Virus record (IMG/VR): IMGVR_UViG_3300020442_000008
Coordinates: 32,001-96,000 of that record
Direction: 5' to 3' (one strand)
Length of the DNA stretch: 64,000 nt
DNA from: a virus
Part shown: positions 33,864 through 60,300 of the stretch, piece after piece
Layout of the letters: each line of letters starts with the position of its first letter
Numbering within the stretch: position 1 is the first letter of the stretch
Translations under genes and position numbers: made by a program
The notes under the pieces: generated by a model
Seen by the model: the letters and a program-made list of their open reading frames with translations, nothing else
What the model was told of the DNA's origin: nothing
The model's database searches: none

Positions 33864-33950
33864 TTGACAAATAACTAAATATATAGTATTATTAATACAT
33901 AACAATTGAGAAAGAAACTCAATCAAATAAAATATAATTGATCTTTAACA
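33864..33950 (+). promoter_or_regulatory. sigma70 promoter with boxB-like hairpin and boxA antitermination signal
   Basis: TTGACA 33864, 17 bp, TATTAT 33887; ATTGAG/CTCAAT hairpin; TGATCTTTAACA at 33939-33950. Confidence 0.65.
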
Positions 33951-33965
33951 TTTTTTTAACACTTT

Positions 33966-34172
33966 GGAAGGGCTTATAATCCTTCCTGTGGGTGACTGAA
34001 TAAGCCTGTCGTGAGCGGGCTAAAGTACGCAGACTTCCTGTGGTGGGAGTGCAGAGTCCAATCGGATGAGCAAAAGATGTAGACCTTGTCTAGTCTGTGG
34101 TTTGAAGTAGGTACACCATTGAACTGATGTTCACGCCGAAAAAATGGAGGTATTCAGTAGTCCTCCCCCACA
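33966..34172 (+). ncRNA. Structured non-coding RNA (possibly manA-motif-like)
   Basis: GC-richer ORF-free island; TGTGGG/CCCACA closing stem, several internal hairpins, ACTGAATA/TATTCAGT pseudoknot-type pairing; lies between promoter+boxA and terminator. Confidence 0.65.
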
Positions 34173-34182
34173 TCTATTTACA

Positions 34183-34265: not shown

Positions 34266-34300
34266 AAAAACCCTCATCTTTCGAGATGGGGGTTTTTTTT
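34266..34300 (+). terminator. Intrinsic terminator
   Basis: CCCTCATCT-TTCG-AGATGGGGG followed by T8. Confidence 0.85.
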
Positions 34301-35637: not shown

Positions 35638-35715
35638 CATCATACTGACTATCAAGGACTTATGAAATTTCGCCAAGTCAAAAACTTGCGTAAGTCTCCG
35701 GCAATCAAAGACTTA
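35638..35715. repeat. Double-palindrome element, copy A
   Basis: Arms ...TATCAAGGACTTA (ends 35662) and TAAGTCTCCGGCAATCAAAGACTTA (35691); 53-bp offset; preceded by GGGCGCCGCCC. Confidence 0.75.
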
Positions 35716-37053
35716 CAACAAAAGTAATTAAAAAGCAAAAAAGGTGTTGACAGGACGACATTCTTTCTCTAGTATAGTATACATGATGAAAAACGATATG
35801 CCTATAAACGAATTATTAAACTTCGATGATCTTGTTTTCAAGCCACATCGCCATGCCGACGGAGTTCAAGCTGTGCTTGACTTGGGAAACGATCTTTCGA
35901 TCTCTGTCGTTGCAAACAATGACGGAGGGCAAGGGTTATATGGTCAAGTCAGTGATGGTCTGTACGAAGTTGCAGTCTTTTACAAGAATGATATGATTCC
36001 TCTCTCTCCTGCAGATGATGTTGTGGGTTGGCAATCTCCTAACCAAATCTCTTATATGATGATGAAGGCTCAAGTAGAAGGGTTTTATTGGGTTGATGAG
36101 CTTAAGGATGCAAAAAGAGAGTATAGAAGAGAATTCGAGCTTGACAATTAATTACCATTAGTATAGGATGATATTATGACAGACGCAGAATTAGTAATGC
36201 AAATCGTTAAAGGAAATCTTGCTTGGCAAGATCCAATGTCTAAGGTTTGCCTCGATCAACATGAGCGACATCCCGAAAAGTTCCCTTTGGGTAGTACCTT
36301 TCAGTCATTCGATGAAGTTTTAGACGACATCATTTTTGACTTGACATCTTTACGAGATGAGCGTAGAATAGAATCATCTTTTCAATCAGCACAACTATAA
36401 CCAAAGAAATTATGTTAACAGATAAAAACCAAATCGCAGAGTTTAGACTCCGCACTCTTCACAAAATGCTAAAGCTTGAAATTCTTGGGATGAAACGCAG
36501 AGGTCAATCGGCTTATGCAATCATAAAGCAAGAAACGGGTCTCACGGGATCAAAGCAAAAAGTTTACGACAAACTAGATGCTTTTCTGAATCCTCAACAT
36601 GATGTAGAAATGGAAAGGGCAATCTACAATGGGTAAGAAGAATAAAGAAAAAGGCATTCCTAGCCAAGAAGCTCATTTGCACTTGCATAAAGTGGCAAAG
36701 AAATCCTCTCACACGGGCAACAAACCTCTTGTTCCACACATTAACAATCCTAATGTTATGGTTACTCAAAAGGTGAGAAAAGCCCAAGAATCGAAAAAAA
36801 ACTCTTGACTTTTAACCCATAATTTGAGATACTTATATCATGTTAGATTATATTGAAGCAAACTGCGTTTTACCGCCACTTGAAAACAAACCATCCTACA
36901 ACGAAGAATCGGGCTTATGGGAACTATACTTTGAGGAGCTTTTACCATCATGGTATGTTAGAGGTGAAGACGAACACCCCGACCTTATCACTCTCAATTT
37001 CGAGACTTGGGATCAAGTCCAAAACACTTTACTACAACTAGAACAAATCAAAC

Positions 37054-37299
37054 ATGAAAGGGACGCTTATGAAGCTACTGAGCAAGATCAAGAATCTGTT
37101 CTCTCCTAAGTACCAAGTGGTATATACCACTCAAGACGGACGGACTGAACGCTATACAATCAACAAACCATCATATGAGTATGAGTTTGGCAACAATCAC
37201 GAAGGAAAGAAAGTCGTTGGCTTTCGCTCCTACTGCCACAATCGGCATGGTGTACGCTCTTTTCGTTACGATAGAGTTGTCGCACTAGAAAGGGCATAA
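37054..37299 (+). CDS. Small WYL-like domain protein
   Basis: YC...GVRSFRYDRV motif. Confidence 0.45.
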   Translation: MKGTLMKLLSKIKNLFSPKYQVVYTTQDGRTERYTINKPSYEYEFGNNHEGKKVVGFRSYCHNRHGVRSFRYDRVVALERA

Positions 37300-37473
37300 T
37301 CCATGAATATAATTGCCTTAAAGAAACAGATTCGCCAACTCGGCTACGAGCTAATGCTTGCAGAAGTTAGCGATTCTTATTGCGAAGACTTCGTAGAGAA
37401 AAGGAAGCTCCACGACTCCTTGCTAGAGCAACTCTACAAGGCGGAAAAAAGAGTTTTCTGATCTTTACCCTCC

Positions 37474-37553
37474 TAAACCATTATCCCCCAAGCACTTGGG
37501 GGATTTTTGGCATAGGCCGGCCGGCCCGTAAGTCCTTGGTATAGAGTGAGTTA
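37474..37553. repeat. Double-palindrome element, copy B
   Basis: Arms at 37474 (TAAACCATTATCCCCCAAGCACTTG) and 37529 (TAAGTCCTTGGTATAGAGTGAGTTA), 55-bp offset; GGCCGGCCGGCCCG core; first arm overlaps a terminator-like hairpin. Confidence 0.75.
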
Positions 37554-37929
37554 AGCAACAAAAAAAATGTGTTTATTAGTCATTTTATGCTTGCAGTTTG
37601 CACCGATTCTGTCATACTTATAGTTATGATAATTAATGAAGAATACCAATCGGATGAAAACCCTAACGCTGAACTCGTTGTCGAGGCAATCATGGATCAG
37701 ATCGCAACTATCCTTATTCAACCTATGCACGACAAACTTACCGCTGAAGATCAACTGACCCTTGGTCTTGTGGCAAATGCCCTAAAAGTATTGGGCAAGA
37801 AAGCTCAAGCATATGAAAACTTGGAAAACGGAGAACTTCCCCAAGATTGGAAAAATTAGTGCTTGACTTTTTATATATTTTCACTTATACTTATATCATA
37901 ACAATCGAAAATCCTAAACTTAAAAAATT

Positions 37930-38727
37930 ATGTTAGATACAACTCAAGAAACTCCTCGTCTTAACCTTCGCATTTGCGGTAACAGATCAACAATCGTTGA
38001 CATGGATGCCGTTCGTAGAGTACCAACTCCACAAGCAACGAATCGTTGGAAACCTATTGCACACTCAAAAGTTGTCGATACAACTCGAAACACTCTTGAG
38101 GATAAAGGTTTTGAAATTCTCAACGAATGTCACAATGTCACCAAAGGTGGCGAGCATTACTTTGGAATGTTCCAAGTTAATCATGCTGACCTTTCCGATA
38201 ATGGCGGTGAGCGTGGTTGCGTTGTGGGCATGAGAAATTCCCATGACAAACTTTTCGCAGCAGGTCTGTGTGCAGGTGACGCACCATTCATCTGTGACAA
38301 TCTTATTTTTCACAACGAAGTTGTCTTCACTCGCAAACATGTTGGCGATGTTTATGGAGAACTCGTAACAAGGGTGAACAAAATCACCGAGTATCTTATT
38401 CCTATGTGGACTCGTCAAAATGATCGTGTGCAAGCCTACAAAGACCTTGCGGTCAATGATCGTGAAGCTCAGCATCTCATTTTCGATGTTTACGAAGCAG
38501 GAATTAAGACTAATTTGATTGGCAAGTCTATGCTCGCTCAAGCGTGGGAGCAATGGAAAGATTCTGACCACAAGGTTTTCCAAGACCGCAATCTCAATTC
38601 ATTGTACAATGCTTTCACAGAAGTGAGCAAAGGACGCAATGTTATGCACTTGCCCAAACGCTCTGAAATTTTCCACAACGCTTTTGATCCTGTCGCAGGG
38701 GTTGAAGCAGTCGAACTTGTCGCTTAA
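37930..38727 (+). CDS. DUF932/DUF945-like phage protein
   Basis: PTP..T..WKPIAH, YFG, GMRNSHDK, ICDNL, RKH, LYNAFTE. Confidence 0.7.
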   Translation: MLDTTQETPRLNLRICGNRSTIVDMDAVRRVPTPQATNRWKPIAHSKVVDTTRNTLEDKGFEILNECHNVTKGGEHYFGMFQVNHADLSDNGGERGCVVGMRNSHDKLFAAGLCAGDAPFICDNLIFHNEVVFTRKHVGDVYGELVTRVNKITEYLIPMWTRQNDRVQAYKDLAVNDREAQHLIFDVYEAGIKTNLIGKSMLAQAWEQWKDSDHKVFQDRNLNSLYNAFTEVSKGRNVMHLPKRSEIFHNAFDPVAGVEAVELVA

Positions 38728-39000
38728 TTTTAACACTAAAACAAAGGATATACATTATGAAATGCCGTAATCTCAACGAAGTACTCGATTCACGCAAAGG
38801 ACGATTTGTTTCCGTCCTTCTAAAGAATGGTCTGAAGCGTGAGCTTTATTCAGCTAAAGTTCACGACTACAATTCTAAAGTCGTCCGTTTCCGTGACACT
38901 AATGGAGGCGAGCGTAGAGTTGACCGCTCTATGGTTGTAAGGGCTAAGGTTGCCGAGCGTTATTTCAAACGCTCAAGGAGTTAACCAAAGCTCTCCTTCA

Positions 39001-39031
39001 AAAAACCCTTGGGAAACCAAGGGTTTTTTTT
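39001..39031 (+). terminator. Intrinsic terminator
   Basis: AAAAACCCTTGG-GAAA-CCAAGGG followed by T8. Confidence 0.85.
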
Positions 39032-39037
39032 GTGCCC

Positions 39038-39117
39038 TAAGTTATTTACTATCAAGGACTTCCAGGCTTGCCGGCCCAGGCAAAACTTGGCGTAAGTCTT
39101 TGATTATCAGGTGTTTG
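39038..39117. repeat. Double-palindrome element, copy C
   Basis: Arms at 39038 (TAAGTTATTTACTATCAAGGACTTC) and 39093 (TAAGTCTTTGATTATCAGGTGTTTG), 55-bp offset; GCCGGCCC core. Confidence 0.8.
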
Positions 39118-39173
39118 AAGCTTAAGAAAAAAAAGTGTTGACAGGTGCCTAGTTATAGTGTTATAGTATAGGT

Positions 39174-39575
39174 ATGATTAGAACAAAGACAGACTCTCGC
39201 TACGACATCGACTATGACCGTAAGGTGTTCGTATATAAAAACCTTCACAAGAATTGCTGGAGCATCCGCCAGGACGGGTTAGTCAAAGCTCATTCAGATG
39301 GTTCACCAATTTGCTTATATTCAGCAGTCATGAAAGTTAACCAAAAAGGTCGAGAGCGTGTGATTCGAGAAAAGAGTAAAAATGTTCATGCAGGTATTTT
39401 GGGTTACCTTAGATTTCCTATGATGGAAGTATGGCACGGATGGGTTGACATGATCGAGATTACATATAACCCTTACAAGTATCATTCTTTTGTAGATGTT
39501 GAAAACAAGAAGACAAGATACTTCGCAAGCTTCTGTAAACTTTATCAAGATAAAGTTTTAGTTGATCGTTATTAA
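39174..39575 (+). CDS. Conserved phage hypothetical protein
   Basis: VYKNLHK.CWSIR...GRERV.REK.KNVHA...YNPYK motif. Confidence 0.6.
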   Translation: MIRTKTDSRYDIDYDRKVFVYKNLHKNCWSIRQDGLVKAHSDGSPICLYSAVMKVNQKGRERVIREKSKNVHAGILGYLRFPMMEVWHGWVDMIEITYNPYKYHSFVDVENKKTRYFASFCKLYQDKVLVDRY

Positions 39576-39613
39576 GGGTTGACAAGTTAATTTATTTTTA
39601 TTAGTATAGTATC

Positions 39614-40354
39614 ATGATTAAAACAACACTTCTCACATCAGGTAATCAAAAAATTCTCAAAGGAGAAAAAATGGGTTACATCACGAAAGGCATCCACCTT
39701 GCCCCTGCCAATCTTGCGGGCTATGAAGTTTGCCAATGGCGTTCCAAAGGATGCACTGCTTCTTGTCTCAACACGGCTGGTCGTGGGCAAATGAACTCTG
39801 TTCAGCAGTCACGCATTGCCAAGACAAAGCTATTCTTCGAGCAACGCAAAGATTTCATGATTAAGCTTTGCAAAGAAATTGCTTCGACCATTAAGTCGGC
39901 AAGCAAGAAAGAGATGAAAGCAGTTTTCCGTCTCAATCTCACAAGTGACATTAAATGGGAGGATGTTTACATGAAAGATCCAAACTATAACATTTTTGAA
40001 TACTTTTGTGCAGAACAATTCTACGACTACACAAAGTCATTTAAGAGAATGTGTGCTTATCTTGGCAAGCCATTCACCAAAGATGAAGCAAAGTTTCCGT
40101 CCAATTATCATCTAACTTTTTCTCGTTCAGAACACAACGATAAGAAGTGTGAAATGGTTCTTGCTATGGGTGGCAATGTTGCCGTGGTGTTTCGCAATCA
40201 ATTACCAAAGACTTGGAAAGGTTACGAAGTTGTTAATGGTGATGAAACTGATTTGCGTTTCCTTGACAAAAAAGGTGTTGTCGTTGGGCTTATCGAAAAA
40301 GGTATGGCAAAGAAAGATGAGACAGGATTCGTGCAAGAAGGTATTGACTCTTAA
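39614..40354 (+). CDS. Gp88-like phage protein (Cys cluster)
   Basis: HLAPA, C-W-S-GC-ASCL-AGRG, RLN-TSDI-W, FYDYTK, NYHLTFS-SE, GD-TDLRFLD. Confidence 0.7.
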   Translation: MIKTTLLTSGNQKILKGEKMGYITKGIHLAPANLAGYEVCQWRSKGCTASCLNTAGRGQMNSVQQSRIAKTKLFFEQRKDFMIKLCKEIASTIKSASKKEMKAVFRLNLTSDIKWEDVYMKDPNYNIFEYFCAEQFYDYTKSFKRMCAYLGKPFTKDEAKFPSNYHLTFSRSEHNDKKCEMVLAMGGNVAVVFRNQLPKTWKGYEVVNGDETDLRFLDKKGVVVGLIEKGMAKKDETGFVQEGIDS

Positions 40355-40666
40355 TTGCAATTTGATATAATTATAGTATGAGAAAAACAAAATTCATATT
40401 GACTTTATCAAACGACAAAATTCCAATCATTGCAGAAGTTTGTGCTTTAAGAGTTTTAGAGAATGATGAAAAAGTATTAGGCAAAGCTTGCGTGGAAGCA
40501 AACATTAAGTCAAAAAACTTCATAGACATAACAAGAAAAGCCAACTATAAAGAAGGAAAGTTATATGCTCATGCGGATTATGTATAAGCGAAAAACCGCC
40601 ACGCAAATAGAAGAATGACAAATAGATAAATAGCAAATAGTATATATTTACCAATAAAAAATTCCA

Positions 40667-40746
40667 TAACCTTTTCATTATCAATGACTTATGGGATTTT
40701 TTTGCTAGGCCAGGGTTTGCGTAAGTCTCCGACAATCAAGGACTTA
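40667..40746. repeat. Double-palindrome element, copy D (at the strand switch)
   Basis: Arms at 40667 (TAACCTTTTCATTATCAATGACTTA) and 40722 (TAAGTCTCCGACAATCAAGGACTTA), 55-bp offset; second arm nearly identical to copy A. Confidence 0.8.
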
Positions 40747-40748
40747 CA

Positions 40749-40916
40749 TCACGAGAAAAAAGGATGCTTGACCACTGAAGACATCGGGACACAAACCCGC
40801 CTCTGTGAGCGGTAGACCCTCGCAAGGACGAAGGTCTCGGCTCCGTCTTTGTAAGTGCCCTCGACATGGAGGATTCGCTTTTTATAGTCTACCACGACAT
40901 CATTTTTTTTAATCAT
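40749..40916 (-). CDS. Small hypothetical protein (55 aa, missing from ORF track)
   Basis: MIKKNDVVVDYKKRILHVEGTYKDGAETFVLARVYRSQRRVCVPMSSVVKHPFFS; innermost gene of the - strand block. Confidence 0.6.
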   Translation of the reverse strand: MIKKNDVVVDYKKRILHVEGTYKDGAETFVLARVYRSQRRVCVPMSSVVKHPFFS

Positions 40917-41699
40917 AATTTTATCCTATTCTATCGGCTCAACTCGCCTTTGATCAATTCTTTTATTAATGCGAACAATCCCACAACACCTAGCAATGTG
41001 ACCAATTCCATTATTTATTTGTCTGAAGGAACAAAGTCAAGCTCACGATTGTCAAGGATGTATCCTATGACTTTATTGACCTTTTCGATTGTATCGTCGA
41101 GGGTCTTTTTGGAATGTTCTGTGGCTTTCATTTCTTCAAGCACGGAACGCAAGAACTTGAGATTTCCGTTTGCGGAAGCAAGCTTCATTGCGGTATTGTC
41201 GAGGAGTTTTTCGTCTTTGAGTGTTTCGATAATCATAAGTCTATTCTAAGGATTTAAGGTTAAAAGTCAAGCTTTTTTTTTCACTCCCACTCGGAGTGAT
41301 GACCGAAGTCGATGTCCTCGACCTCTTGGAAGTCAAGGAGGGAAATCCTGTCTTGCAGGTCTCCGATTTCGTTGCGGTACGCAACGAGGTCAGCGGAGGT
41401 GAGGACGGAATCCGCGATGATTTCGCGGAGGAGAGAAATTTTGTTGAGCATTTCGGATTTTGTCATAATTTTTTGTGTTAGGTTTTCTTTATTTTATATT
41501 TACAATGTATCAGAGTTTTGCGGAAAAGTCAAGAACTTTTTTTACTTTTTTTCAATTTTGGAATTACGAATTTGCAGAGGATTTTTTCTCTTTCTGTGAG
41601 TTGGGCTTTTTCAATCTTAATCATACCTATAATGTAGCACAAAAACCCCGAAAAGTCAAGAAAAATCTTTAACTATTTTTTTGCACAATTCTCCTAGCG

Positions 41700-41779
41700 T
41701 AAGTTGTTCTTTACCAAAGACTTCCGGCATAGCCGGCAGGGGCGACCGGCGCCCTAAGTCTTTGATGGTGTGTGACTTA
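41700..41779. repeat. Double-palindrome element, copy E
   Basis: Arms at 41700 and 41755 (55 bp); core CGGCATAGCCGGCAGGGGCGACCGGCGCCC. Confidence 0.85.
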
Positions 41780-42085
41780 GAACACGAGAGATTCAAGATT
41801 CTGATTTTGAACGGCAAACCAATCGGATGGGTTAATGATGTGACCGTTTAGTACAGGCTCAAAGTTGACCTGATGAACTCCGGCATTGACTATTCCGTTC
41901 ACTCGCTCACGAGTGGTTGGAGTGTTCCAGCCAGCCAGAGACCATATCACAAACCCGCTTGCATCACGCTTGATTATAGCGTTGCCATGCAACCAAACGG
42001 TGTTGCCGTCAGTGCGAGTGTTGCCAACTGTCAAAGGTTGGCGAGATTCAAAAGCTTGTTTTATTTGTTGTGTTACTTTTCTCAT
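41777..42085 (-). CDS. Conserved phage hypothetical protein
   Basis: GNT....VWLHGNAI...LAGW.TPTTRER.N motif. Confidence 0.6.
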   Translation of the reverse strand: MRKVTQQIKQAFESRQPLTVGNTRTDGNTVWLHGNAIIKRDASGFVIWSLAGWNTPTTRERVNGIVNAGVHQVNFEPVLNGHIINPSDWFAVQNQNLESLVF

Positions 42086-42272
42086 TGTTATATATTAAGA
42101 TTTTTTTTCGGGTTTTGCAAGTAAAAAGTTCAAGAAAGTTTCTTGAGCCTTTTGGTTGTCCAGGAGTTCGTCAAGTTCAATTTGTGCATTTATTACCATC
42201 TGCTGGCTTTGAATGTGTCCTGCTTCTGCGATAGGGTTGAAAACCCTGATGAGTTCTTTGAGTTCTTTGATT

Positions 42273-42431
42273 CTATCCATGGCTTGAGAGAATTGGGGCT
42301 TGGGTTTTGACTTGTAACTGCTTTGCTTTTTTCATGGCTTTTGCGTGAGTCTTTGCGTTGTCTACGATTTTCCCAAAAAGTCGGATATCGAACCAATTTG
42401 AGAAGTTTGGGTTTTTGTCAACATTTATCAT
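42273..42431 (-). CDS. Microprotein, paralog 1 (52 aa, missing from ORF track)
   Basis: MINVDKNPNFSNWFDIRLFGKIVDNAKTHAKAMKKAK...; own leftward promoter; paralog at 45066-45239. Confidence 0.7.
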   Translation of the reverse strand: MINVDKNPNFSNWFDIRLFGKIVDNAKTHAKAMKKAKQLQVKTQAPILSSHG

Positions 42432-43042
42432 AAGCTTTTATACTATATCTTAAGGTTTAAAAAGTCAAGCTTTATCTCCAACTTTTTAGAGAAAAATTTG
42501 TCTGATGTGCCGAGACGGGCAAACCTTGCGTTGGCAAGTCTTTTGCGAAGTCATCAAAAAAGGCAACCGCTTCCGATAGCTCGTCAGCGTGGATTTGCTC
42601 CTCAAGCTTTTTCAACTCGTCCTGTGCATGGCTGAGATGCAACGCCCGAATGGAACGCAAGGATTCCTTGCGAGAGCGGTTGAGTTTGTCTTGCCAAAAG
42701 GCAATTTCCTTTTGGAGCTTTTCTATCTTTTCAATTTTATTCATGCCTACAATATATCTCAAAAAGGTTGGGAAGTCAAGCTTTTTTTACATTATTTTTC
42801 ATCGCAATCTTGTTTTGCAAATCCCATTCGTCGAGCCAAGCTTGGTTTTTTGCCAAAGCATCCTTGGCAATTTCAACCACGACAGGGTCGCTATCGTGGG
42901 CAATGGTCTCCCGAAGGAATACCATATCGGCTTTGACTTTAGAGATGAGTCTTATTGAATTAAACATACCTATAAGGTATCAGAAAAACCGACATTTGTA
43001 AAGCCTAAAATTAAACTATTTTTTTGCACGATTCTGCTGTCG

Positions 43043-43122
43043 TAAGTCATTGTTAGTTAGAGACTTCCGGCGCAGCCGGCCTGGCCGGCCAGGCCCGCAA
43101 GTCCTTGGCTAACAAAGGTTTA
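43043..43122. repeat. Double-palindrome element, copy F
   Basis: Arms at 43043 and 43098 (55 bp); core CGGCGCAGCCGGCCTGGCCGGCCAGGCCCG. Confidence 0.85.
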
Positions 43123-43570
43123 GGTCGTTTTTTCGAGGCTTTCGACCCATCTTCCGACTAGCTCTATATCGTGAAAAATGTGGTCAATCGGCTTATCTTC
43201 GCATTCGTCGTAATGCTTTGCCTCGTCGAAGTAGTAAGTGCAAACGATTTTTTGAATGGAATTGATAACAGGTTCAGGTATGTCTTGCATTTTCATTTTC
43301 ATTTTTAGTTTAACTCGTTAAAGTAGTTTTCTTCAATGATTTCTGTACCGATAAACTCACGGCATCGAGATAGGTCTTGCTCTAAGTAGTACCGAACGGC
43401 TTTGGCTACAATTTGATTATCTTCCTTGTAGGGAAGTTCGTCTTTTACTCTCGCCACTATGGCGTCAATCCACTTTGGCACGATGTCTTTTTCAATTTTC
43501 ATGAGTATGATTTTAGTAATTTTTGAGCCGATTGCAAGATTTTTTTTCGTTTTAGTTAAGTTTTTTTTGG

Positions 43571-43690
43571 TTATCTGCGGGGAGCCAAGTCCCGCCGTTT
43601 ACGGCTCTTAGTTTGGGATTTTCATTTTCATATCTGCGGGGAGCCAAGTCCCGCCGTTTACGGCTCTTAGTTGGGAATTTTCTTAATCAT
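43571..43690 (-). repeat. Tandem duplicated unit: 7-codon minigene plus structured GC-rich segment
   Basis: Two copies of TATCTGCGGGGAGCCAAGTCCCGCCGTTTACGGCTCTTAGTT, 59-bp period; - strand reads MIKKIPN* and MKMKIPN*. Confidence 0.85.
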
Positions 43691-43760
43691 ACCTATAACA
43701 TAGCACAGAAACTCAGAAAAGTCAAGAAAAATCTTTAACTATTTTTTCAGATTTGTGTCG

Positions 43761-43840
43761 TAACTCTTTGAACTGGAGCGACTTGCGACAGATTTTCGGG
43801 GGGCGACCGGCGCCCTAAGTCTTTGATTACCAAGGCTTTT
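43761..43840. repeat. Double-palindrome element, copy G
   Basis: Arms at 43761 and 43816 (55 bp); core ends GGGGGCGACCGGCGCCC. Confidence 0.85.
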
Positions 43841-45065
43841 CGTCTTCTTTCATATCTTGCCACATGAGATAGAAAACTACAAGCCAAGGAGAGAATAGGA
43901 TAATTTCGATCATAATGTTATTTTTTGCGTTGTTCGTGCAGTATGGTCTGAAGCTTTTTTCGGGCTTCTTGGACTGCGTGGAGAGCGTCGAGGATCGCGA
44001 TGCCTTGCGTGATGCTCAAGGTTTGGTCTCCTTCGGTGTTGGTTGACCCAGCAAGAAAGTTGAGATTGCCTTCTGCTTTAGAGAGAGCAAGTCCGAGATC
44101 CAACTCGGGAAAATCCATTTTGCTTGATTCGTTCATGCTACTGATTTCGTTTTGATTGTTTGGTGTTCGCTTTTTAAAGCTTTGGTGATCTTGCTCATGG
44201 CAAGGGCGTTTAAACTAATTTGTTTTAAGAATGTTTCAATCTTTATCATATTACTAATCTATAAAAGTTTTGGGCAAAAGTCAAGTTTTTTTTAAATTAT
44301 TTTTCCCATATTTGGTTGATGTAAAAAACGGCTTGATCTCCTTCTTTTGGAAACATTCCCCTTTGAAGTTGCACTTTTGTTTGCAACTTGCGAACCATAG
44401 CAAAAAACTTGCGTCTAGCTTCAGGCTTGTCTTCAGCTTCAACGGAGAGAATGTTGTTTGTCATGTGCGTATCAACAAAGGAATTTGTGTTTGTGTTCCA
44501 TAAAGGAAGCTTTTCCTTGCTATCAATGGAAGAGACATGAATGTTTGCAGTGAATGTTTTATTTTTAATCATGTATATAATTTAAAGGATTTCTTTGTAA
44601 AAGTCAAACTTTTTTTTAATTATTTTACAGCTTGTTTGATCATTTCAAAAGTCCAAACGTGACCTCCTGGGCATTCCCAAAGGTCGAAAGCCTCGGACAT
44701 CGGGCTTGCTTGGATACGCTGAAGACCATTTTCTTCAATGAATTTTTGTATTTCTTTAGTTAACATATTTTCTATTATAAGGATTTAAGGTTTAAAGTCA
44801 AGCGTTTCTTTCAACGGATCTCCAACCATAACGAGCGACTTCGTCATTATAGCGAGCTTCGGGAAGCCTTGATTTTAGGCTTTTGATATTGGCGAGAATC
44901 ATCTCGCGAGTGTGACCTGTGGCGGGCACGAAGCCTTTACCACTTTCGTAGTGATGTTTTTCGAGGCTAGACTCGAGCATTTGAATGTCGAACTTTATTG
45001 ATTCTGTTTCTGTCATTTTCATATTTACAATCTACTATATTTTTACTAAAAAGTCAAGCTTTATT

Positions 45066-45239
45066 TTACTTTTTTTTACTTATTCTTGCACCTGTGGTGA
45101 TGGTGTTTGGAAGTTCTTTTTTAAGCCTTTCAGCTATTTGCATAGCTTGGGCGTGTGTCCTTGCGTTGTCTACTAGCACATCATTAACTAGCACATTAAA
45201 CCATTCTGAGAAGTTAGCATTTCGTATTATCTTAATCAT
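45066..45239 (-). CDS. Microprotein, paralog 2 (57 aa, missing from ORF track)
   Basis: MIKIIRNANFSEWFNVLVNDVLVDNARTHAQAMQIAE... Confidence 0.7.
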   Translation of the reverse strand: MIKIIRNANFSEWFNVLVNDVLVDNARTHAQAMQIAERLKKELPNTITTGARISKKK

Positions 45240-45310
45240 ACTAACAACATAGCACTATATGGGGCAAAAGTCAAGTATTATTTTACTTTTTTTTTATTTT
45301 TTTTCTATTA

Positions 45311-45390
45311 TAACTTACTGATTATTAAAGACTTACAGCATAGCCGGCAGGGGCGGCCGGCGCCCTAAGTCATTGGCTATTAAGGGTTTA
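45311..45390. repeat. Double-palindrome element, copy H
   Basis: Arms at 45311 and 45366 (55 bp); core CAGCATAGCCGGCAGGGGCGGCCGGCGCCC, nearly identical to copy E. Confidence 0.85.
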
Positions 45391-45612
45391 GAACTCGTCC
45401 ATCAAGAACTCGTCAAGTGCATAGGTGTCTAGGTCGGGGTCTTGGTAGCTTGCACCATCAGGTGTGTTGTATGTGCCCGATTCTACTAGATGATTGGCTA
45501 GATCTTTGTATTGCACAAAACGCCTAGCGAGTTTATATAAACTCTCGTCGTTGCCTAACCATAGGGCAACATTCCATGTTGCCCAATTTGCCCAGCCGTT
45601 GTAATCGCTCAT
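45388..45612 (-). CDS. Conserved phage protein (YNGW-NW-TWNVALW family)
   Basis: MSDYNGWANWATWNVALWLGNDE...TPDG; start moved to 45612. Confidence 0.7.
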   Translation of the reverse strand: MSDYNGWANWATWNVALWLGNDESLYKLARRFVQYKDLANHLVESGTYNTPDGASYQDPDLDTYALDEFLMDEF

Positions 45613-45616
45613 GGTC

Positions 45617-45778
45617 TTATGCGTTAGGGTTGACAGCGAAAAGCCCATAACGACGCGAGCCGTCATTGTGCTTCATGCGAGAGCGTAGGAGACGCTCAGC
45701 GTCACGCCTCCGCAACGCTATGGATTCGACTTGCCAAACGGCGCCCGCTTGGTTGAGGATAGACTTAAGGATGTACAT
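45617..45778 (-). CDS. Small basic hypothetical protein (53 aa, missing from ORF track)
   Basis: MYILKSILNQAGAVWQVESIALRRRDAERLLRSRMKHNDGSRRYGLFAVNPNA; AGAAAGG upstream. Confidence 0.55.
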   Translation of the reverse strand: MYILKSILNQAGAVWQVESIALRRRDAERLLRSRMKHNDGSRRYGLFAVNPNA

Positions 45779-51391: not shown

Positions 51392-54300
51392 ATGGGAGGT
51401 AGTGGTTATCAAATTCACGGCTTACCCGGCGGTTATGCTCCCGCAATTTCCGAAAAAGGGGTTGATATATATGGTGGACCTAGAGGTTCTTTAGCGGGCA
51501 CTCTGCCGTCTTGGATTGCATGGTGGACCACTGGCTTCAGGTATCAGCCTGGGCATATTGTATATATGCCTGGCGTGTATGAGAGAGATTATAATGTGGC
51601 TGGGCAAGTTATAAACCAAGGATCTTTTTCTCCTGGACAGGCATACGACGATGGCAGAGGAAACCTGTCTTATAAAAGAGACGAGCTTGCTTGGGATCAA
51701 GATATCCAGGTACAAAGCCTTCAAGAAGGAGGAGATCTTACAGGAGGAAGCATGTCTAGGGGCGCCGGTTCAATCAAGTCTGAAGGGGCTAAGCAGTACT
51801 TTGAATATGGATCTCATACATTATGGGTTAAATTATTTGGAGGTCAGGATAATGCGGCGACAAACGACTCTTCATTAACAAAGGATGCAGATTTTTTTGA
51901 TGTAAACAAGCGGCGAAAAAACGGGTGGTATTGTTTTTACGAGCTAATGAGGGAAACAGATCCTATTGTTGGAGGAAACCTTGAAATCGCTTTTCCTGGA
52001 AATTATGATATACAAAGTAATCAGTGGGACAGTAATAAAAAAAGATATACAGTTAAAGTAAATAACCAAGAAACTTTAAAGGTTGTCTATGGTTCCTGGG
52101 GTGAAGATCTTTTTAGACAAATTCCTTGCGAACCAAATAGCGCTACAGAAATCGCAGTTTTTCACGATGAGACCATATTGAACATGTGTGATACTTTTGC
52201 TCTTCTAGCTTCAACTCTTGCAGCTAGCAAGCATTTAGTAAATTTTGTTGTATGTAAAAGTGTTCTTAGGTCACCTGGATCTTTAGGAGAAGATGAATCT
52301 GCAAGCCCTGTTGAGGTTGCAATTCTTCCGACCGATAAAATTACTATCGGAGGAAATGTTCTCAGAAGCCCTCAAAAGGTTGCCATTAGGGATACGGTTG
52401 ATAATAGTTTTGATAAGGATAGTAGTTTTTTTGAAAACGACAGCGGTTCAGATGAAGAAATAACGATGCTCTCTGCAGGTTACCCTGGAATTATGAATCC
52501 TGAGGCATTATTTCATGCCGCTCGAAACGCAGACGATTTTGATGCAAAAATAAGCGATATTGCCAAGGGTAATGTTGTAGGAAGTGACGTTATTGTGGGC
52601 GAGCAAATTCTAGCAGATTCTGAGCAATTATATTTAGATAAAATAAAATTTGGTAAAATGCCTGCTTACGATCCTAGATTTGGTGAAGCTGCAACTTCGT
52701 TAAATAGTTTTATAAGTTCTGTTTATAATTTTTCCCTACCCATGTCAACTAGTGCGAGCATTGATTTCTGGGAAGCAAATATATTATACAAAGTTGGCAA
52801 GGTTGTAAGGCTGTCTCCCAACGCAACCGAATATAATGCGGCAGAGGCGGAGAAAAACTTTAAAGATGTTGTCTGGGTTTGTAAAAAAGAGCATACATCT
52901 GGCGTTTTTGCTGGAGAAAAGTGTCCGCCTTTGGGAAGTGGTGGTTCTCGCTCTGTTCCCGAGGTTTTTGAAAACACCTATTGGAGAAGTTATGGAGTCT
53001 TGGCGAATCAACCAAATTCATCGCTTCTTCAGTTGAATGATTTATATAGAGATTCTGAAATATTTGTCCCCACAATTAATGTAACAAAAAGTGCTTCTGA
53101 AAATCTAAACCTTGGAGAAGCTGATTTTTCGCGAAGCTTACTGGGTTCTTCTAGGAGAATTAGAATGTCTGAAATGTCTGGAGGTTGCAGATTGTATGCG
53201 AGTTTAACCATTTCACCTGCCAAAAAATTTGACGTAAAATATTATCGAAAAAGAAATTCATGGGGAAGAAGAAGAACCGTATCTTTTAGATTTCCACCTC
53301 AGAGGTCCGATGCAGCTCAAGCAGACTTATGGTTGTATGCCAATAACTTCAGGAAGGATCATGCAGGATCTATAAATTTTGCAGTTACATTTGTTGAGCA
53401 TACTGGTTTTGTTTGGGCTCAGGCAAAAAGGAGAAGAGGTTCATTTTTTGGAGTTTTACTGGGAGTGGCTTTTGCGGTTGTTGGAATCCTTAATCCCGCT
53501 TTATTTCTTACTGCAGGTATGCAATGCGCTGCGTGGGGTTTTGGTGGCGGGCTTGCTTTAGGGGCTTTGGGTGGAGCGGTGGGATTAGGTATTGGTACTG
53601 CTCTAGGGGCAAGCGCTGAAGCGGTTTACGCAAACCTGGGAAAAGGGGTTGGTAGAAAAAAAGCTTTTACTAGGCAATCTTTTTCTAAAATCGTGAGTAA
53701 GGTTGCTGCTGATGCACCATCTTTGGACTATGTTCTTCAACGTGGTCAAAGCCCAGACAATGGAGTTGTTATAGGAAAAAATAGTAGTGATGTTGCGCAA
53801 GATATGTATGATAGCAGTAGTGATACTAAAAACGAAAATGATATAATTAGATTTAATTTTGGTAATCTTTATCCATATCTATATGAAAGCAAGCATAATA
53901 ATACAATTCATGTTACTGGAGAATATCAGTTTATGATCCAAGATTTGAATTCAGCGCAAACAATAAAGGTTGATTTTAAGTATGAAGAAATTAGCCGCAG
54001 AAGATCTAGGAATTTTAATGATTCCTTTGGTCAAACCTTTTCAGGTTACCCGCGAGGAACACCAGAAAGCCCGCATGCTAGTGCAAGCTCAACCCTTTAC
54101 AATGCATACGTAAGCGCAGCAAATGATATTATTAGCGGAAGCACAAGTTCTGGACAAAATCTTAAGTTAATTGCAACAAGAAATTATTTTAATTATCTAT
54201 TAATTGGCCAAGAAAATGTAAGAGACGCTAATGATCCCCTAAAAGCTTTAACGATGTGGTCTGTCGATTTGAGTAATGCTCAATTTAATGCTTTGATAGG

Positions 54301-57300
54301 TATGATGCAAACGGGTTTTAGGGATTTGGTGTTTTCTGGGGATGGCAGTTTCGCTGATCAGGATGGACTTAGTGATTATCATGAGTTTTATACAGAAAAC
54401 CCTCCTATTGCCGCTGCGGAGAATGAAGCTGCACCAGGTTACCAACTAGAAATAGAAAACAACAGTATCAAGGCTGTGATCAAGGATCCAGGTTTAGAAA
54501 CAGAGCGTAGGGTGGGAGTATTAACCAGTGTATCACAGACCCAAAGTTTGGATCGCGAAGAAGCAGAGGTGCTTGCGAAAGGTCTCGTTCCTGGGGAATT
54601 TAAATTAGGAAAAGAATTAAGTGAATCGACCCCTCAATATATAAATTTTTTAAACACTCCGTCTATTACTGATTCTATAAAGTGGGGGGATATTCAAAGC
54701 GGTATAAAGATTAATGGTGGTAGTGTTATTGAGCATGACTCTAAATTCTACTTCGTAAATTCTACTTTTATTAAGGGCAGTCAAAACTTGACTGATGTCG
54801 CAACTCTGGTTCCAGGCTCCTCGTCTAGTATATATACTGCAGACTCTTTCTCCCCAAGTTTGACACTCACTAAACAGTGGCAAAAAATGATTGAGTCCGA
54901 GTTTTACTTAGAGAGAGCAATAGATCGAAGCCCGACCTATTCTGTCGTGGGTAGAAAACTAGATTTTTCATTTATTGTTAAAGAAAGCGCGGATTCTTCA
55001 TTGATTAATTTATTCTTGTTTGGTTTTTCTGATTTTGTGCCGAGGTTCTCTATGAGTAATTTTAGAACTTATTTTGTAGATTCTGTGGCGACGATTAGTA
55101 TACAAAGGCCAATCAAAGATATCAGCGGCCAGTTGCTTGGAGAGGGTACGGCCAGTTGGTCTCAAGCAGATACAAAAGATACTCAAGACCACGTATTTAG
55201 ATTAAAAGAAGATATTCCTGACAAGGAAAATCCTAATATAGGAACCATTCCTGGCTTTAAGGATGAAACTTCTTGGGAATATATTGGAATGCCTCCTGAT
55301 TTATCGAATAATGCTTTTGATTGGTCGTTACCAGTATTAAATGAAATCAGTGAGTTTTCCGCAGGAGACGACCTGCTGACTGGATCCAGAACGCGTTCCA
55401 TAGGCTTTTTAACTTCTAATTCAGAAAGGTTTAGGCTTGTTTCTAGCGATACAATAGAAGACGTTTTGGCCAGATCTGATGCGAATTCTATTAATTTTCC
55501 ATGGATCAAAAGAGATTCACAAGAATCAGGCGGAACATATATATCTAAAACGGATCGGAATGGAGACTTGGTGCATCTTTTATGCCCATATAATTCAACT
55601 AATCAAGATCAATGGGGACCTAGTAATGTATCATCCGTATGGAAAAGCGTAATGAATTCAATAATCGGTGCATCAAATGTATCGCATTTACTAGATGCAT
55701 ACCTTACAAATGAATTAGATACTGCTCGCAGTTTTTCGGATGGCGCAGTAGATCTAACTCATATTCAATTTGTTATATCACCTGTAAGTGATATAATTTC
55801 CTCTCTTGAGGTTTGGGATGCAAGTAAGAATTACAATAATGGAGATGTCGTTGCCGTGCATCATACAAATTACCATTACGTAGATAAGTCTACAGGAAAC
55901 ATTAACTCACGAAGTAGTCAGTTTGGCAAGCTTTGGATGTTTGCAAAAGCAAGAAAAAATATAGTTGCAAATACAAACATTCCTTTGTTTGATGATAATG
56001 GAGATCCTGGAGCTGCTTTAGGAAAATCCACTTCAGAGCTTGCGACCATGGTTTTACCAATAGAAACAAAATACTGGGAATGTGCAACAGCGAGAGAGGG
56101 TACTGGTAAGGAGGCAGTGACTAGCGCTATTGGCTCTAAGAAGTTATCTAAATCTTACTACGGAACAGATTTGGATGTTAAAAGTTACGGCATCTCAATG
56201 GGTTCTCCAGACACTTACCAACAGAAGGACAGGGCGACGAAGACCACAGTCGCATACGTTCCTCAGCAAAGAATGATTTACAACAATAACGTAAACACCG
56301 ACTTTCAAAACGTTAATAATTTAATCTTTACCACAACTATATCTGAAGACGCCAAAATCGTAGGTAGACTTCCTGCGGAATCTATATTATATACAAACCA
56401 GGGAGGAACTTGGCCTGGTACAGTTGGGGATAAAGCTTCCACTTACTTATCTAGAGTTGATTGGGCGAACTTATATCCCGAGAATCAATTGATAAGCTTA
56501 TTTCTTCAAAGAACTGTAAATGCCGGAGCCAAATGGACAACCTGGCTAGACGCGTATGGTGAGTTGGCTTATGGAGAGCAAAATAAAGCCAAAGCATACG
56601 AGACGGTTACTTTTTCTCAAGGAGATGAATTTAATCAATTTCAAACGATTCCAAATGTAACACTTGGCGTTTCTAAAGACGACGGTACAACATTTTCTTC
56701 GTATGAAGCTTTTAGAAATTTTGACCCAAATTACCCCGTATTTCACAAGGGTTATACCGTACCTATTGGAATCAAAGCTTCAGTTACTAACACGGCAGGA
56801 TTGATCGTGAAGCCTTCGTCCACCGATGGCTCAAACCTTTATGGCTACGCCTCTTGTTTGGCTGGTCCTGGTGAAAGCATAGTAGGTGGGCAATACGGCA
56901 AAATTACATATGTTCACGAAGGTTCTGGCAGTGAAAATGTAAAAATTATGGATTCTTCAGGTAGTGTTATAAACAATGTGGAAATATCTGAAAGATTTCG
57001 ATCACTAGTGGCTGGAGATAAAAGCGGGGTAATAGGATATGGTCCAGAATGCTTAACTACTGAGTTCAATATTCATAGTATTTCTGGGATTGATATGGCC
57101 AATTTTACTTCAGCTTTGTCGGTTAAATTACCTGAAAAATGCGCAACTCGTGAAATTGCAGATTTATGTACGCAGAAGTGCGTACTGGTACTTGGAATAA
57201 GAGATGGAAACGATGGAACTACTCTAAATAGAACTAGATTTAAAAATTTTTATACTGGAAGTGGTATAAATTTTGAATTTGATAATTGGTTCGCAAGAAG

Positions 57301-60300
57301 AGATTCTAGTGGAAATTACAAGGATTCATTTGGAGAGTCCTGGCCAGATTCTATGAGGACACATGGCGAAGACGATGAAATCATAAAGGTTGTTTCCAAG
57401 CTGAATACAGTTTCAGAAGCGGTAACTGGACTTATTGATGTTTGTGGGGCAGGGGAAGCGGATTCTCATAAAGATAAAACGATAAAGTTGTCTGATACGG
57501 AAACTCATTATCATGGATTTGAGCAAGAGTTCTTGCCTTATGATGATATAGGCTTGGCGTATATAACTGAAATATTGAAGGGTGCTGGGCAATTTATCGG
57601 ATCGCAAGTCGGCGCAGGTTTTAATGCAAGTGGCACTTATATAGGTGGTTCAGGATTAACCCAGACAACCATGGCTACTGCAGAGTTTATGGCGATATCT
57701 CAGCCAGCATTTGAGGATGGGTTGATGCACGGAAAACCTCCTGGCTCGGATAAAATTTATTTTTATTCAAATTCAAATTATGATTTTAAACTTGATGTAT
57801 CAATTCCATCTCTTTTGTATAAAAAATATGTTAATAATGATGATCCTTCAGATGTGATTAATAAAAACTATTACGATACATTGTTTGATAGTAATTCTCC
57901 AGGAGGAGGAGATGCAAAAAATGATTTTTATGAAGAATACGTATTCTTGCCTGAATTTAAAATTTATTTAAATAATAATTTACAAAACACCTATAATCAG
58001 TCTAGTTCTGAATTTAGTGAAATAAATGGATATATAGGAAGATTTACTTTAAATAAAGCGAAATTAGGAAATCCTTCTAATAATAGTATTATTAAATTTA
58101 CTATTGATGACGGAATAACCTGTCCACATGGGGCTAATTTCAAAGAATTGAGTTTAACCGCCAAAGTTGTTCAGCCTCCGTCTTTTAGTGCAATGGAGAA
58201 TAATATCAATGGAAAGTTATATTATTATACAAACGATGATCATCTTTATTCTTTTGGCGTGGCTTTTCCGAATAGTAGCACCTTTGGTGGAAGAGTCGTT
58301 ATTAATGACGGCGTCTCAGGGGATCAATTTTTCGAATCATCCAGTGGAGCTCCGAATGTAGATTTCACTGGGCCTGGTGCTGGCTCAACGCAAGTAACTA
58401 TTACTGTAGATGATGGAATACCTTTTGGGTTCGGCAAGGCCAGAACGGGTGCAGCGGGACATAATTTAATTTACCCCTCTAATTTTGATCCTGTTCAGAT
58501 TTTTCCTGTTGCAAAAATTCCTGTTGGTGATATCTTTTTAACTTTGAGTACGACCGGAGATGGTTTTATAGCAAACAAGACAATCGGTACACCTCCAGAC
58601 ATAGAAGTTGTGGATATTATGAAGCAATATATTTATAATAAATATGACCACGAATACTCTGGACTCATTGCAAACATTCCCGCCTTTGCGGTTGATGATG
58701 TCACTGATCGAACGCATTTCGTGTCGAGCTCTTCAATTACAGGTGAAGCAGCGGGGTCTTCTACCCAATTAGCGCTCTATTTTAATCCGTTTTTCTTTTT
58801 TTCCGCGGGTCAGGGCCTAGTTACGTTAAAGGAAGATATGTTTCCAGAGGAGGAAGAGGGAATTCAGAATTTTACAATTCAAGACGGAACATTTTTAAGT
58901 TCACCCAAGTCTTCGGCGGTAGTGCAAATTCCGTATGTTAGAATAAATAGACCTCACGCAACGATTACTGGAATTGATTTTAGTGAAACTTTTAAACTTT
59001 GGAATGATTCACCATTGGTTGCATCTGGAGAATTCGAAATTGAAGGGCTTATTAGTTGCTCTGAATTTGCTAACATAAAGATCACAACTGATAGGGGCGA
59101 ATACAATCTTTCTGACGAAGATGGTTTGGAAAATCCTCCTGATGGTGGCTTTACAAATTTTAGGTGGAATTTTACTGATTACAATTTAGATTCTAGTATT
59201 AATGGCGAGGCGGATCTTATTGATGGATTGTATGTAACAATTTTAGATCGAAACCGAGGGACTAACGAAGGTACAGACACTTGGGAAACATATAATTATA
59301 CCACCTCAGAAACAATCGACTTGTTTCTTGATAGTAATGAATATAAAAGTAATTATGCAAGTGGAGACATCGTTACCACTGATCCGTTAAAGAGAATTAG
59401 GTTTAGCAAGAGCATTAGCGGAATTCCTCTTACCGTTCGAATACAGGACAATGTTTTGAAAGATAATGGAATCATTGAAACCAAGGATATCGAGCTACCT
59501 GGGCAGATGAGTGTTGCAAATATACCAATTTATAGCAAGCTTAAAAGTTTATTTAAGTATGAAGATCAGAGTGATAGCTTGATTAAAAATAGAATGGGTG
59601 GTCAGTTTAATATAGTTGACAAGGATTGGAATCCTGGATTTGCTTCGCTTGAAGACTTTCAAGTCCGAAGGTATTCTGCTGCAAATAGTGCTTTGCTTTA
59701 TTCTTCTTATACTGTATTAAGCTCTCTTCGAATTAATTATCATCATAGTGCAAATGTATCACGGACAAAAAATATTTTTGAAACCGGAAATAGGACAAGC
59801 TATGATGCACACGACGCTAGGATAGCTTATGATTCCGCAAGGCATGGTAATAATGAACCCAACGTATGGGCAGAGAATTCAGGCACCGAAGACTGGAGTC
59901 AATATTGCACCACTGCAATGTCAAATGGAGCGATCGATTTGTGTCCGAATGCTATGGGCGATTTAATTTGGTCAGATGATGCAAAATGGCTAAGGCATGA
60001 AGATGTCGACCCATCTTCCCCAACGTCGCCAGATGAAAGGGCTTATGACGATTTTGTAATTTGGCACCCTAAAGACCACAAGGGAGAAGATAACTGGGAA
60101 ATTGTTGGTAGGTCAGATAAAGATGATAATGATGAATCTTCCATGAGACTTCCTGATTGGGTGGGAGATGACGACGGTCTTGTTTCGTCAGATCAAGACT
60201 GGTTTTCTACAACAAGACTCATGGGGTGGCGTGTAACTTGCCCTCATTTGAGTTTTATAGGGAATTTGGCAAACTGCGCGCAGGATACAGAAAAGCGTTA

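Follow-up and report, generated by a model that had tools for sequence, protein, structure and literature searches.

The IMG/VR virus record IMGVR_UViG_3300020442_000008 (128,598 bp, rated 95% complete; hereafter G000) carries eight 80-bp elements, each of which consists of two 25-bp palindromic arms that flank a short core. The window, that is the whole 64,000-nucleotide stretch that was analysed, comprises bases 32,001-96,000 of this record, and coordinates without further specification refer to it. The eight elements, designated A to H, are part of a widespread family of extragenic boundary repeats that occupies the early, promoter-dense cassette region of a clade of uncultivated marine phages. 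The most surprising feature of the family is that the distance between the two arms is exact within a genome and specific to that genome. Judged from the pattern of conservation, an element may act as a boundary module that separates early operons, binds protein at two sites and doubles as a cassette junction; we assign this interpretation a probability of roughly 0.4.

Early ORFan regions keep genes for host takeover and counter-defence, and their wiring and reshuffling are poorly understood outside the T4-type phages. With the family described here, cassette borders can be recognised by a sharply defined feature that is easy to search for, and this across a large clade of uncultivated marine phages.

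Eight elements of fixed geometry

A previous sequence-only reading of the window had described the eight double palindromes and had placed them correctly: a direct check, a scan with the arm pattern and a genome-wide profile search all recovered them (Table 1). The arms follow the pattern cgTAAgtcnTTGA-N3-TCAAngacTTAcg. With up to three mismatches allowed, this pattern has ten matches in the window, all of which lie within elements, compared with 0.05 expected, and none of 100 shuffled windows reached ten matches. A profile built from the eight copies recovered just those eight in the 128,598-bp genome (E <= 3e-14; next match E = 9.5), a search that is partly circular because the profile derives from the same copies. 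The exact word TAAGTCNTTG occurs ten times in the genome, every time inside an element. The sequence-only reading had suggested looking for equally frequent matches in shuffled DNA or in other regions; neither the shuffles nor the remainder of the genome contained them.

The arm starts are 55 bp apart in seven copies and 53 bp apart in A, exactly as had been described. Other parts of the description require some correction. The arms are 25-bp imperfect palindromes overall, but the outer half of arm 1 is degenerate in A and B, and the alignment of the arms reveals that the palindrome continues by CG at either side. Moreover, the cores had been called mostly GC-rich, which applies to six copies (GC content 0.67-0.90) but not to A and D. 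Most cores of G000 bear no resemblance to one another in sequence but have the same length, an indication that length is under selection. All eight copies align in a single orientation, and the best-scoring strand is mixed in relatives; the polarity of the element is weak because the design is quasi-palindromic.

A family with genome-specific arm spacing

By using the DUF932 protein encoded between B and C as a query, nine IMG/VR loci with 98-46% identity were retrieved. All nine share the same layout, which consists of two convergent blocks of small genes with elements between the operons and one element at the convergence point, and this arrangement was found in seven of the seven genomes that were mapped. 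Equivalents of D at the convergence point are present in L006, L007, L008, L009, L011 and L013. The spacing is 55 bp in L005 and L006, 52-53 bp in L007-L010 and 46 bp in L011-L013. In the records behind these loci, the arms are clustered in a single region of 15-18 kb (10/10 arms in G002, 10/13 in G003 and 17/17 in G004), and the reversed-pattern control gave no match.

A scan of IMG/VR with the pattern TAA-N4-TTGA-N3-TCAA-N4-TTACG, so that each source had to contain TTGA..TCAA..TTACG in one arm or more, returned at least 120 stretches. Together with the seven genomes, 127 sources were examined, 69 of which contain two or more elements of one spacing, and the total is 307 elements among the matches listed. 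Sixty-two sources have at least three arm pairs; of their 346 pairs, 253 fall at the modal spacing of the respective source, out of 50 possible spacings, and shuffled sources gave no pair. The modal spacings span 40-60 bp between genomes and are exact within a genome. A spacing of 50 bp is the most frequent (26 sources), followed by 52 and 58 (six each), 48 (five), 41 and 51 (three each), 55, 46 and 42 (two each) and six further values (once each). Conservation of the spacing in relatives, to which the sequence-only reading had given weight, was thus found inside each lineage but not between lineages (55, 52, 46 and other values). The elements are extragenic in 279 of 307 cases, whereas random placement would give 21%; neighbouring elements are separated by a median of 1,109 bp. 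GP88-like genes are present in 22, L5-gp82-like genes in 18 and DUF932 genes in 17 of the stretches, which therefore represent one broad clade with a shared early module.

The consensus of 110 arms from seven genomes is cgTAAgtcnTTGAnnaTCAAngacTTAcg. At the variable N4 positions, complementary pairs were counted in 156 of 440 cases, compared with 165-178 in shuffles. The complementarity of the inner arms vanishes under within-genome shuffling, and tests for pairing between the two arms are likewise null within genomes. As compensatory pairing is lacking, the arms are best read as double-stranded DNA sites for a protein: it is their sequence and not their pairing that is conserved, as would be expected if a protein reads the DNA. 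Hairpin-forming arms, either in RNA or as a cruciform, were ruled out by the lack of covariation.

The family could also be a REPIN- or MITE-like selfish repeat, that is, a small non-autonomous mobile or gene-converting element that keeps its spacing by concerted evolution and has no function for the phage. We regard this as unlikely, even though several observations would fit it well. The spacing shifts between fairly close relatives, as it is 41-42 bp in sources whose GP88-like protein is 75-78% identical to that of G000 with its 55 bp, and the copies within each genome agree. Near-identical copies occur inside some genomes (L223, L222 and L161), and solo arms or half-elements were detected in L006 (13562-13609) and L007 (5513). 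Furthermore, REPINs have been described with a similar design: their inverted ends keep a fixed distance, the spacer is less conserved but its length is important, and they are extragenic (Bertels and Rainey 2011, PMC3116915). However, the phage copies are restricted to one region of 10-18 kb and are not scattered, and the equal length of the unrelated cores in G000 argues for selection on length. The same paper reports frequent compensatory changes in REPINs, whereas the arms show none. Finally, searches of the 95%-complete genome found no tyrosine recombinase (PF00589), resolvase (PF00239) or rve domain and no RAYT transposase (PF01797; no match at E <= 1).

Related palindromes and proteins were also encountered elsewhere. 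The pelagiphage HTVC134P has a GP88 homologue and no paired arms in its genome; GP88-like homologues lie at the left end of many pelagiphage podovirus genomes. In the GP88-like protein of G000 (PF17338; 39614-40354, plus strand), the residues C40, C47 and C51 are invariant across 21 homologues. A scan of bacterial genomes with the arm pattern gave at least 120 stretches with mostly single palindromes from metagenome-assembled genomes of Bacteroidota; nine of the 120 listed had a pair at 38-62 bp, and no conclusion was drawn from these matches. The single palindromes (loci L254-L373), such as TTGATAATCAA flanked by TAA..TTA and CG, come mostly from Bacteroidota (Saprospiraceae, Emticicia, Microscillaceae) and from Fibrobacter and may be chance matches in low-GC genomes.

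Position at the borders of early operons

In G000, a rightward block of small genes (to 40,587) converges on a leftward block (from 40,749). Almost all genes or gene pairs in the region have a promoter of their own. Strict sigma-70-like promoters are densest here, as 22 of the 50 in the genome lie at 64-80 kb of the record, the same place as the elements. Element D is located between the convergent genes and has no adjoining promoter, which agrees with the earlier description of D as the point where two transcription blocks collide. E to H had been placed upstream of leftward promoters, and this is indeed the case, with gaps of 40 bp (E), about 40 bp (F, determined by eye), 35 bp (G) and 36 bp (H). 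For A to C, gaps of 20-40 bp to rightward promoters had been given, which holds for A (31 bp) and C (20 bp); B lies about 43 bp from a weak promoter. Only seven of the approximately 24 promoters in the region are accompanied by an element.

The elements also touch gene ends. The stop codon of the minus-strand gene at 41777-42085 is formed by the last 3 nt of arm 2 of E, and the minus-strand genes at 43120-43302 and 45388-45666 have their stop codons within arm 2 of F and H, respectively. The latter gene is conserved, and its homologue likewise abuts the last element in L006, L007 and L008.

Short tandem repeats of the AAATAG type (period 7-8; 40603-40640) lie directly upstream of D, and similar repeats precede the convergence-point elements of L006 (about 12675-12700) and L009 (about 14438-14480). 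Many early genes on both strands between 34300 and 46300 look leaderless, with the ATG 6-7 nt past the -10 hexamer. Examples of -10/ATG positions are 35775/35783, 36169/36176, 36833/36840, 39167/39174, 39607/39614 and 40371/40378 on the plus strand and 45246/45239, 45029/45022, 44579/44572, 44256/44249 and 41243/41236 on the minus strand. Moreover, the 5' part of the leftward transcript that starts beside G contains two tandem 59-nt units (43572-43691, read on the minus strand; 91% alike, score 205). Each unit has interleaved GAGCC/GGCTC and GCGGG/CCCGC words, which suggest a pseudoknot-like RNA; no Rfam family matched it. A population joint lies at 43631.

Gain and loss of cassettes at the elements

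Population variants of the phage are joined at the elements. In contigs from runs X2, X4 and X9, which belong to three marine studies and are 97-100% like G000, position 43082 in F is connected to position 43801 in G. This joint skips 718 bp, which is the exact F-to-G period and corresponds to one cassette, in register, and it splits the 30-nt core in the middle (15|15), with an ambiguity of 2 nt. The hybrid core made of the left half of F and the right half of G is E/H-like on both sides, and the reciprocal combination would give a complete element on a circle. E and G are identical over 28 nt that begin at the core centre and extend into arm 2; the left half is common to E, F and H. Thus, it appears that the F-G cassette was either inserted at the centre of an E/H-type element or precisely lost from it. 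In one contig, the whole interval from E to H is replaced by 103 nt. A comparison with L006, L007 and L008 revealed that the rightward block is colinear, whereas the leftward block is permuted and differs in content.

The F-by-G joint is one well-defined event and not a rule. Several population joints run from promoter to promoter or lie at gene ends (for example, 45048 to 41524 and 42447 to 42773). In an F/G hybrid of L006, the switch occurs inside arm 2 and not at the centre. The change-points of eight pairs of paralogous elements lie at -4, 0, 53, 64, 65, 74, 79 and 81, which correspond to the edges or to arm 2. A family-wide test for central crossover was confounded by lineage-specific half-core motifs, and a joint from 40588 to 45318 was not counted, as one side comprises just 20 letters. 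The earlier proposal that the elements delimit cassettes is therefore only partly borne out. Gene content does change at element borders in the F-by-G and E-to-H joints, and the permutation of the leftward block agrees with the proposal; the joints at promoters and gene ends do not, and no recombinase was found in G000.

Could the elements be dedicated site-specific recombination sites of the integron or res type, with an unrecognised phage recombinase that binds the arms and exchanges strands in the core? The exact position of the F-by-G joint in three runs, the E/H-type core that it creates, the complete element expected on the circle and the contig that lacks E to H would all suit such a system, as would the motif CCTAG(G) that is located exactly at the centre of six of six cores in L006. 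However, the pattern of F, G, E and H reflects a single historical event, the switch in L006 and the eight change-points lie off centre, and several joints ignore the elements altogether in favour of promoters or gene ends. G000 encodes no member of the known recombinase and transposase families that were searched. Structure models of the DUF932 protein (pLDDT 81.5) and of the GP88-like protein (pLDDT 88.2) match no recombinase or nuclease fold (best matches in the PDB with E values of 0.11 and 0.16); the GP88-like model weakly resembles partial TIM-barrel or radical-SAM enzymes. We therefore consider dedicated recombination sites improbable. This judgement applies equally to att-like sites of a phage-borne cassette exchange, for which the recombinase would possibly be one of the conserved proteins without assigned function that are always encoded among the elements; it would bind both arms at the distance specific to the genome and cross over in the core. 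If an exchange system existed, it would imply an integron-like turnover of self-expressed early genes, for host takeover or anti-defence, in a large marine clade.

Cores, folding and a possible role in RNA

Across the family, the cores have a GC content of 78%, compared with 40% for the loci. In orthologous elements of G000 and L006, the cores have almost fully diverged and are still 30 nt long. Core length and GC content rather than the sequence are kept. The lineages with a spacing of 58 bp possess canonical terminator cores of the type GCGACCCC-tetraloop-GGGGTCG-TTTT with varying loops (z = -2.28). The other cores are GC-rich and often consist of G-runs followed by C-runs, or contain words of the GCCGGC type. 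A hairpin with a T-run is present in B, where CCCCCAAG/CTTGGGGG overlaps arm 1 and the start of the core in the predicted fold, and absent from E, F and H. For C, a hairpin with a T-run was observed upstream of the element at about 39003-39036.

When folded as single strands, the eight elements exceed dinucleotide shuffles in stability for the majority of copies and strands. The z-scores are -4.8/-3.5 for F, which folds as one continuous hairpin with arm 1 paired with arm 2, and -2.0/-3.75 for E; for D and G they are near zero or positive. These folds and the terminator hairpins in B and in the spacing-58 lineages would be expected if the element acted in RNA, its transcribed inner half-arms pairing around the core for stabilisation of the mRNA, cutting by RNase III or attenuation. 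REP hairpins at 3' ends and the early RNase III sites of T7 are models for such a role. Moreover, the elements are probably transcribed because minus-strand genes end inside arm 2. However, covariation is absent within and between the arms, the conserved letters are sequence-specific, and the outer half-sites would have no role in RNA. The values for D and G and for the cores overall (z = -0.36) do not fit either, and an Rfam scan of 34.0-47.0 kb (E <= 1) gave no family match in the elements. An RNA-level element is thus an improbable explanation. RNA contigs from run X19 cover 12 of 30 bins; pieces that stop in A and B were not used because contigs cannot show transcript ends.

IHF-like half-sites

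Each arm is composed of two inverted half-sites of the form CAA-N4-TTR, often WATCAA-N4-TTR, and the last position of the arm (25) is a purine in 101 of 110 arms. IHF recognises the consensus WATCAANNNNTTR. The sequence-only reading had noticed matches to it in several half-arms, and this observation was confirmed: six of the 32 half-sites in G000 are exact matches, compared with 27 in the whole genome, and at least one exact match is present in 279 of the 614 arms of the family. WAT precedes CAAN4TTR in 36% of the arm half-sites, compared with 6.8% outside the elements of the same loci. Thus, the arms resemble IHF sites in the CAA-N4-TTR core, in the preference for W-A-T before CAA and in the final purine. 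However, each arm has two inverted half-sites with only 5 bp between TTG and CAA, and it conserves extra letters (GTC/GAC and the flanking CG). Furthermore, the N4 positions follow lineage-specific preferences, such as GTCn in G000 and AAGC/AACA in L008. Given the inverted doubling, the extra letters, these preferences and the genome-specific spacing, a phage factor that co-evolves with its sites fits at least as well as a host factor.

IHF sites act as upstream activators at lambda pL and ilvPG. That the elements are plain activator sites of this kind, bound by host IHF for the adjoining early promoters with neither a phage factor nor a role of the core, is very improbable: the exact consensus is enriched, seven of the eight elements in G000 lie 20-43 bp upstream of a -35 hexamer and in several copies of L011 and L013 arm 2 stops about 30 bp short of TTGAC, but D and its equivalents have no promoter, 252 of the 307 family members lack a strict promoter within 90 bp, most promoters of the region have no element, and the palindromic doubling, the genome-specific spacing and the extra letters would be unexplained.

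Proposed role of the elements

In the interpretation that we prefer, the bipartite boundary module, each arm (a palindrome of 25-29 bp) would be bound by a protein dimer, which could be encoded by the phage and co-evolve with its sites or be a DNA-bending protein of the IHF/HU type from the host. The two bound arms, together with a stiff or hairpin-forming GC-rich core, would form a complex of about 80 bp. Such a complex might keep neighbouring early operons with strong transcription apart, either by restricting read-through or by insulating them topologically or at the level of promoters, and in some lineages the core itself may serve as an intrinsic terminator. As linkers that are conserved between otherwise unrelated cassettes, the elements are also where recombination adds and removes cassettes. 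The architectural protein-binding role proposed in the sequence-only reading is indirectly supported by conservation of sequence without pairing, by the exact spacing, by the IHF-like half-sites and by the position between transcription units, and the binding is putative.

Several observations weigh against the boundary module. The cores of A and D (GC contents 0.39 and 0.50) are not GC-rich. Compared with shuffles, all cores taken together fold barely better (z = -0.36; z > 0 in 134 of 289), and therefore a terminator role is not general. A strict promoter (TTGAC-N16-18-TAnnnT) within 90 bp was found for just 55 of the 307 elements, at distances of 6-57 bp, and a fixed role in promoter architecture is therefore not supported. 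As for the putative binder, no HU/IHF gene was found in G000, and the Pfam search detected no DNA-binding domain among the 40 small open reading frames (ORFs) of the region. Spacings of 40-60 bp break a common helical phase, which is awkward for an architecture that relies purely on host IHF. Moreover, the T before CAA is biased in the arms retrieved by the family scan because the scan pattern required TTGA..TCAA..TTACG.

The family makes two questions testable: what protein recognises a bipartite site with a spacing that varies from lineage to lineage but is uniform within a genome, and whether gain and loss of cassettes are targeted to the elements. If the arms bind a host protein of the IHF/HU type, they would also offer a clue to the host of these phages, none of which has been cultured.

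The phage and further features of the window

The window encodes rIIA/rIIB, an ATP-dependent DNA ligase, a DnaE-like polymerase, a large terminase and T4-like tail-fibre domains. No cultured relative was found at the DNA level; the polymerase shares no more than 34% identity with proteins of cultured phages, and the terminase no more than 26%. Marine metagenome runs from several studies contain the stretch. A search with the nucleotide-sugar epimerase, aimed at the host, gave just 58%-identical matches from Ignavibacteria and was uninformative. The positions of the elements and the adjoining promoters are summarised in Table 1.

Table 1 Elements A to H and adjoining promoters (window coordinates)
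Feature	Position	Direction	Arm 1	Core (GC content)	Arm 2	Remarks
Element A	35638-35715		35638-35662	35663-35690 (0.39)	35691-35715	left half of arm 1 degenerate; core 28 nt; spacing 53 bp
Element B	37474-37553		37474-37498	37499-37528 (0.70)	37529-37553	
Element C	39038-39117		39038-39062	39063-39092 (0.67)	39093-39117	
Element D	40667-40746		40667-40691	40692-40721 (0.50)	40722-40746	
Element E	41700-41779		41700-41724	41725-41754 (0.83)	41755-41779	
Element F	43043-43122		43043-43067	43068-43097 (0.90)	43098-43122	
Element G	43761-43840		43761-43785	43786-43815 (0.73)	43816-43840	
Element H	45311-45390		45311-45335	45336-45365 (0.83)	45366-45390	
Promoter near A	35747-35775	rightward				TTGACA-17-TAGTAT
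Promoter near B	37597-37624	rightward				weak
Promoter near C	39138-39167	rightward				
Promoter near E	41659-41631	leftward				
Promoter near G	43725-43697	leftward				
Promoter near H	45274-45246	leftward				

A full-length manA RNA motif (RF01745) is located at 33966-34176 on the plus strand and scores 84.4 bits, compared with a gathering score of 55.2. It lies just 3' of a TTGACA-17-TATTAT promoter (33864-33892) and 5' of a strong hairpin with a T-run (34266-34297), and looks like a stand-alone transcript. The phage also encodes the nucleotide-sugar epimerase (2780-3832). A 3,847-aa ORF (51392-62935, plus strand) has no Pfam match above the cut-off and no PHROG match. Hairpin promoters of the N4 type were considered for this ORF and rejected, given the missing Pfam and PHROG matches and the sigma-70-like promoters that the genes of the region already have. 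Among the 40 small ORFs between 32000 and 47500, the Pfam search identified HSP20 (1.9e-15), Kyano_Gp96 (7.5e-8) and DUF7249 (6.3e-14). HSP20 genes are common in marine cyanophages, and Kyano_Gp96 is named in Pfam as a protein of the Kyanoviridae.

Comparison with known systems

The sequence-only reading had recognised no described element in this design. This is fair for the exact design, as no description of it was found in the literature searched, with subscription journals outside the coverage; however, the nearest kinds, the promoter-early stem-loops (PeSLs) and the REPIN/BIME elements, had not been named. A virus-borne mini-CRISPR with a repeat-spacer-repeat structure was also considered and rejected, as the two arms of one element are dissimilar (for instance, in E) and are palindromic rather than direct repeats.

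PeSLs are known from T4-type phages. They are described as repeated intergenic composite motifs in hyperplastic regions of small ORFans, consisting of a strong sigma-70-like promoter and an AT-rich upstream sequence besides the stem-loop, and recombination between copies deletes, inserts and circularises cassettes (Arbiol et al. 2010, PMC2839356; Comeau et al. 2014, PMC4122927). The region described here is similar in that small early genes have their own promoters, cores contain runs of G and C, population variants are joined at repeats and promoters, and cassettes are permuted. In contrast, the PeSLs described there have neither paired 25-bp palindromic arms nor a fixed arm distance, and the position of the stem-loop varies relative to the promoter. 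Moreover, the present phages are not of the T4 type, given the DnaE-like polymerase and the lack of a close cultured relative, and an element accompanies just seven of the region's approximately 24 promoters.

The attC sites of integrons and the res sites of serine recombinases are imperfect inverted repeats with a conserved geometry that form cassette borders. The ends of the F-G cassette would likewise rebuild one site on a circle. However, neither an integrase nor a resolvase was found in the phage, the cassettes have their own promoters and lie in both orientations, and conservation is not based on structure.

BIMEs combine palindromic units with an IHF site, binding of gyrase and protection of mRNA 3' ends. 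REPs are GC-rich palindromes with an AT-richer linker, whereas the phage elements have AT-rich arms and a GC-rich core. REPINs consist of two imperfect palindromic units in inverted orientation at a fixed distance, which is 71 bp in one group (Bertels and Rainey 2011, PMC3116915). The phage elements share with them the extragenic location and a spacer that is less conserved than the ends and whose length matters. They differ from the REPINs described there, which show compensatory changes and are associated with RAYT, in the lack of covariation and of a detectable RAYT; moreover, the phage elements occur in 8-20 copies in one region, while REPINs number hundreds over the chromosome. Taken together, the elements appear to belong to a known kind, the extragenic palindromic boundary repeats, within which their exact design is new and their function is predicted from sequence.

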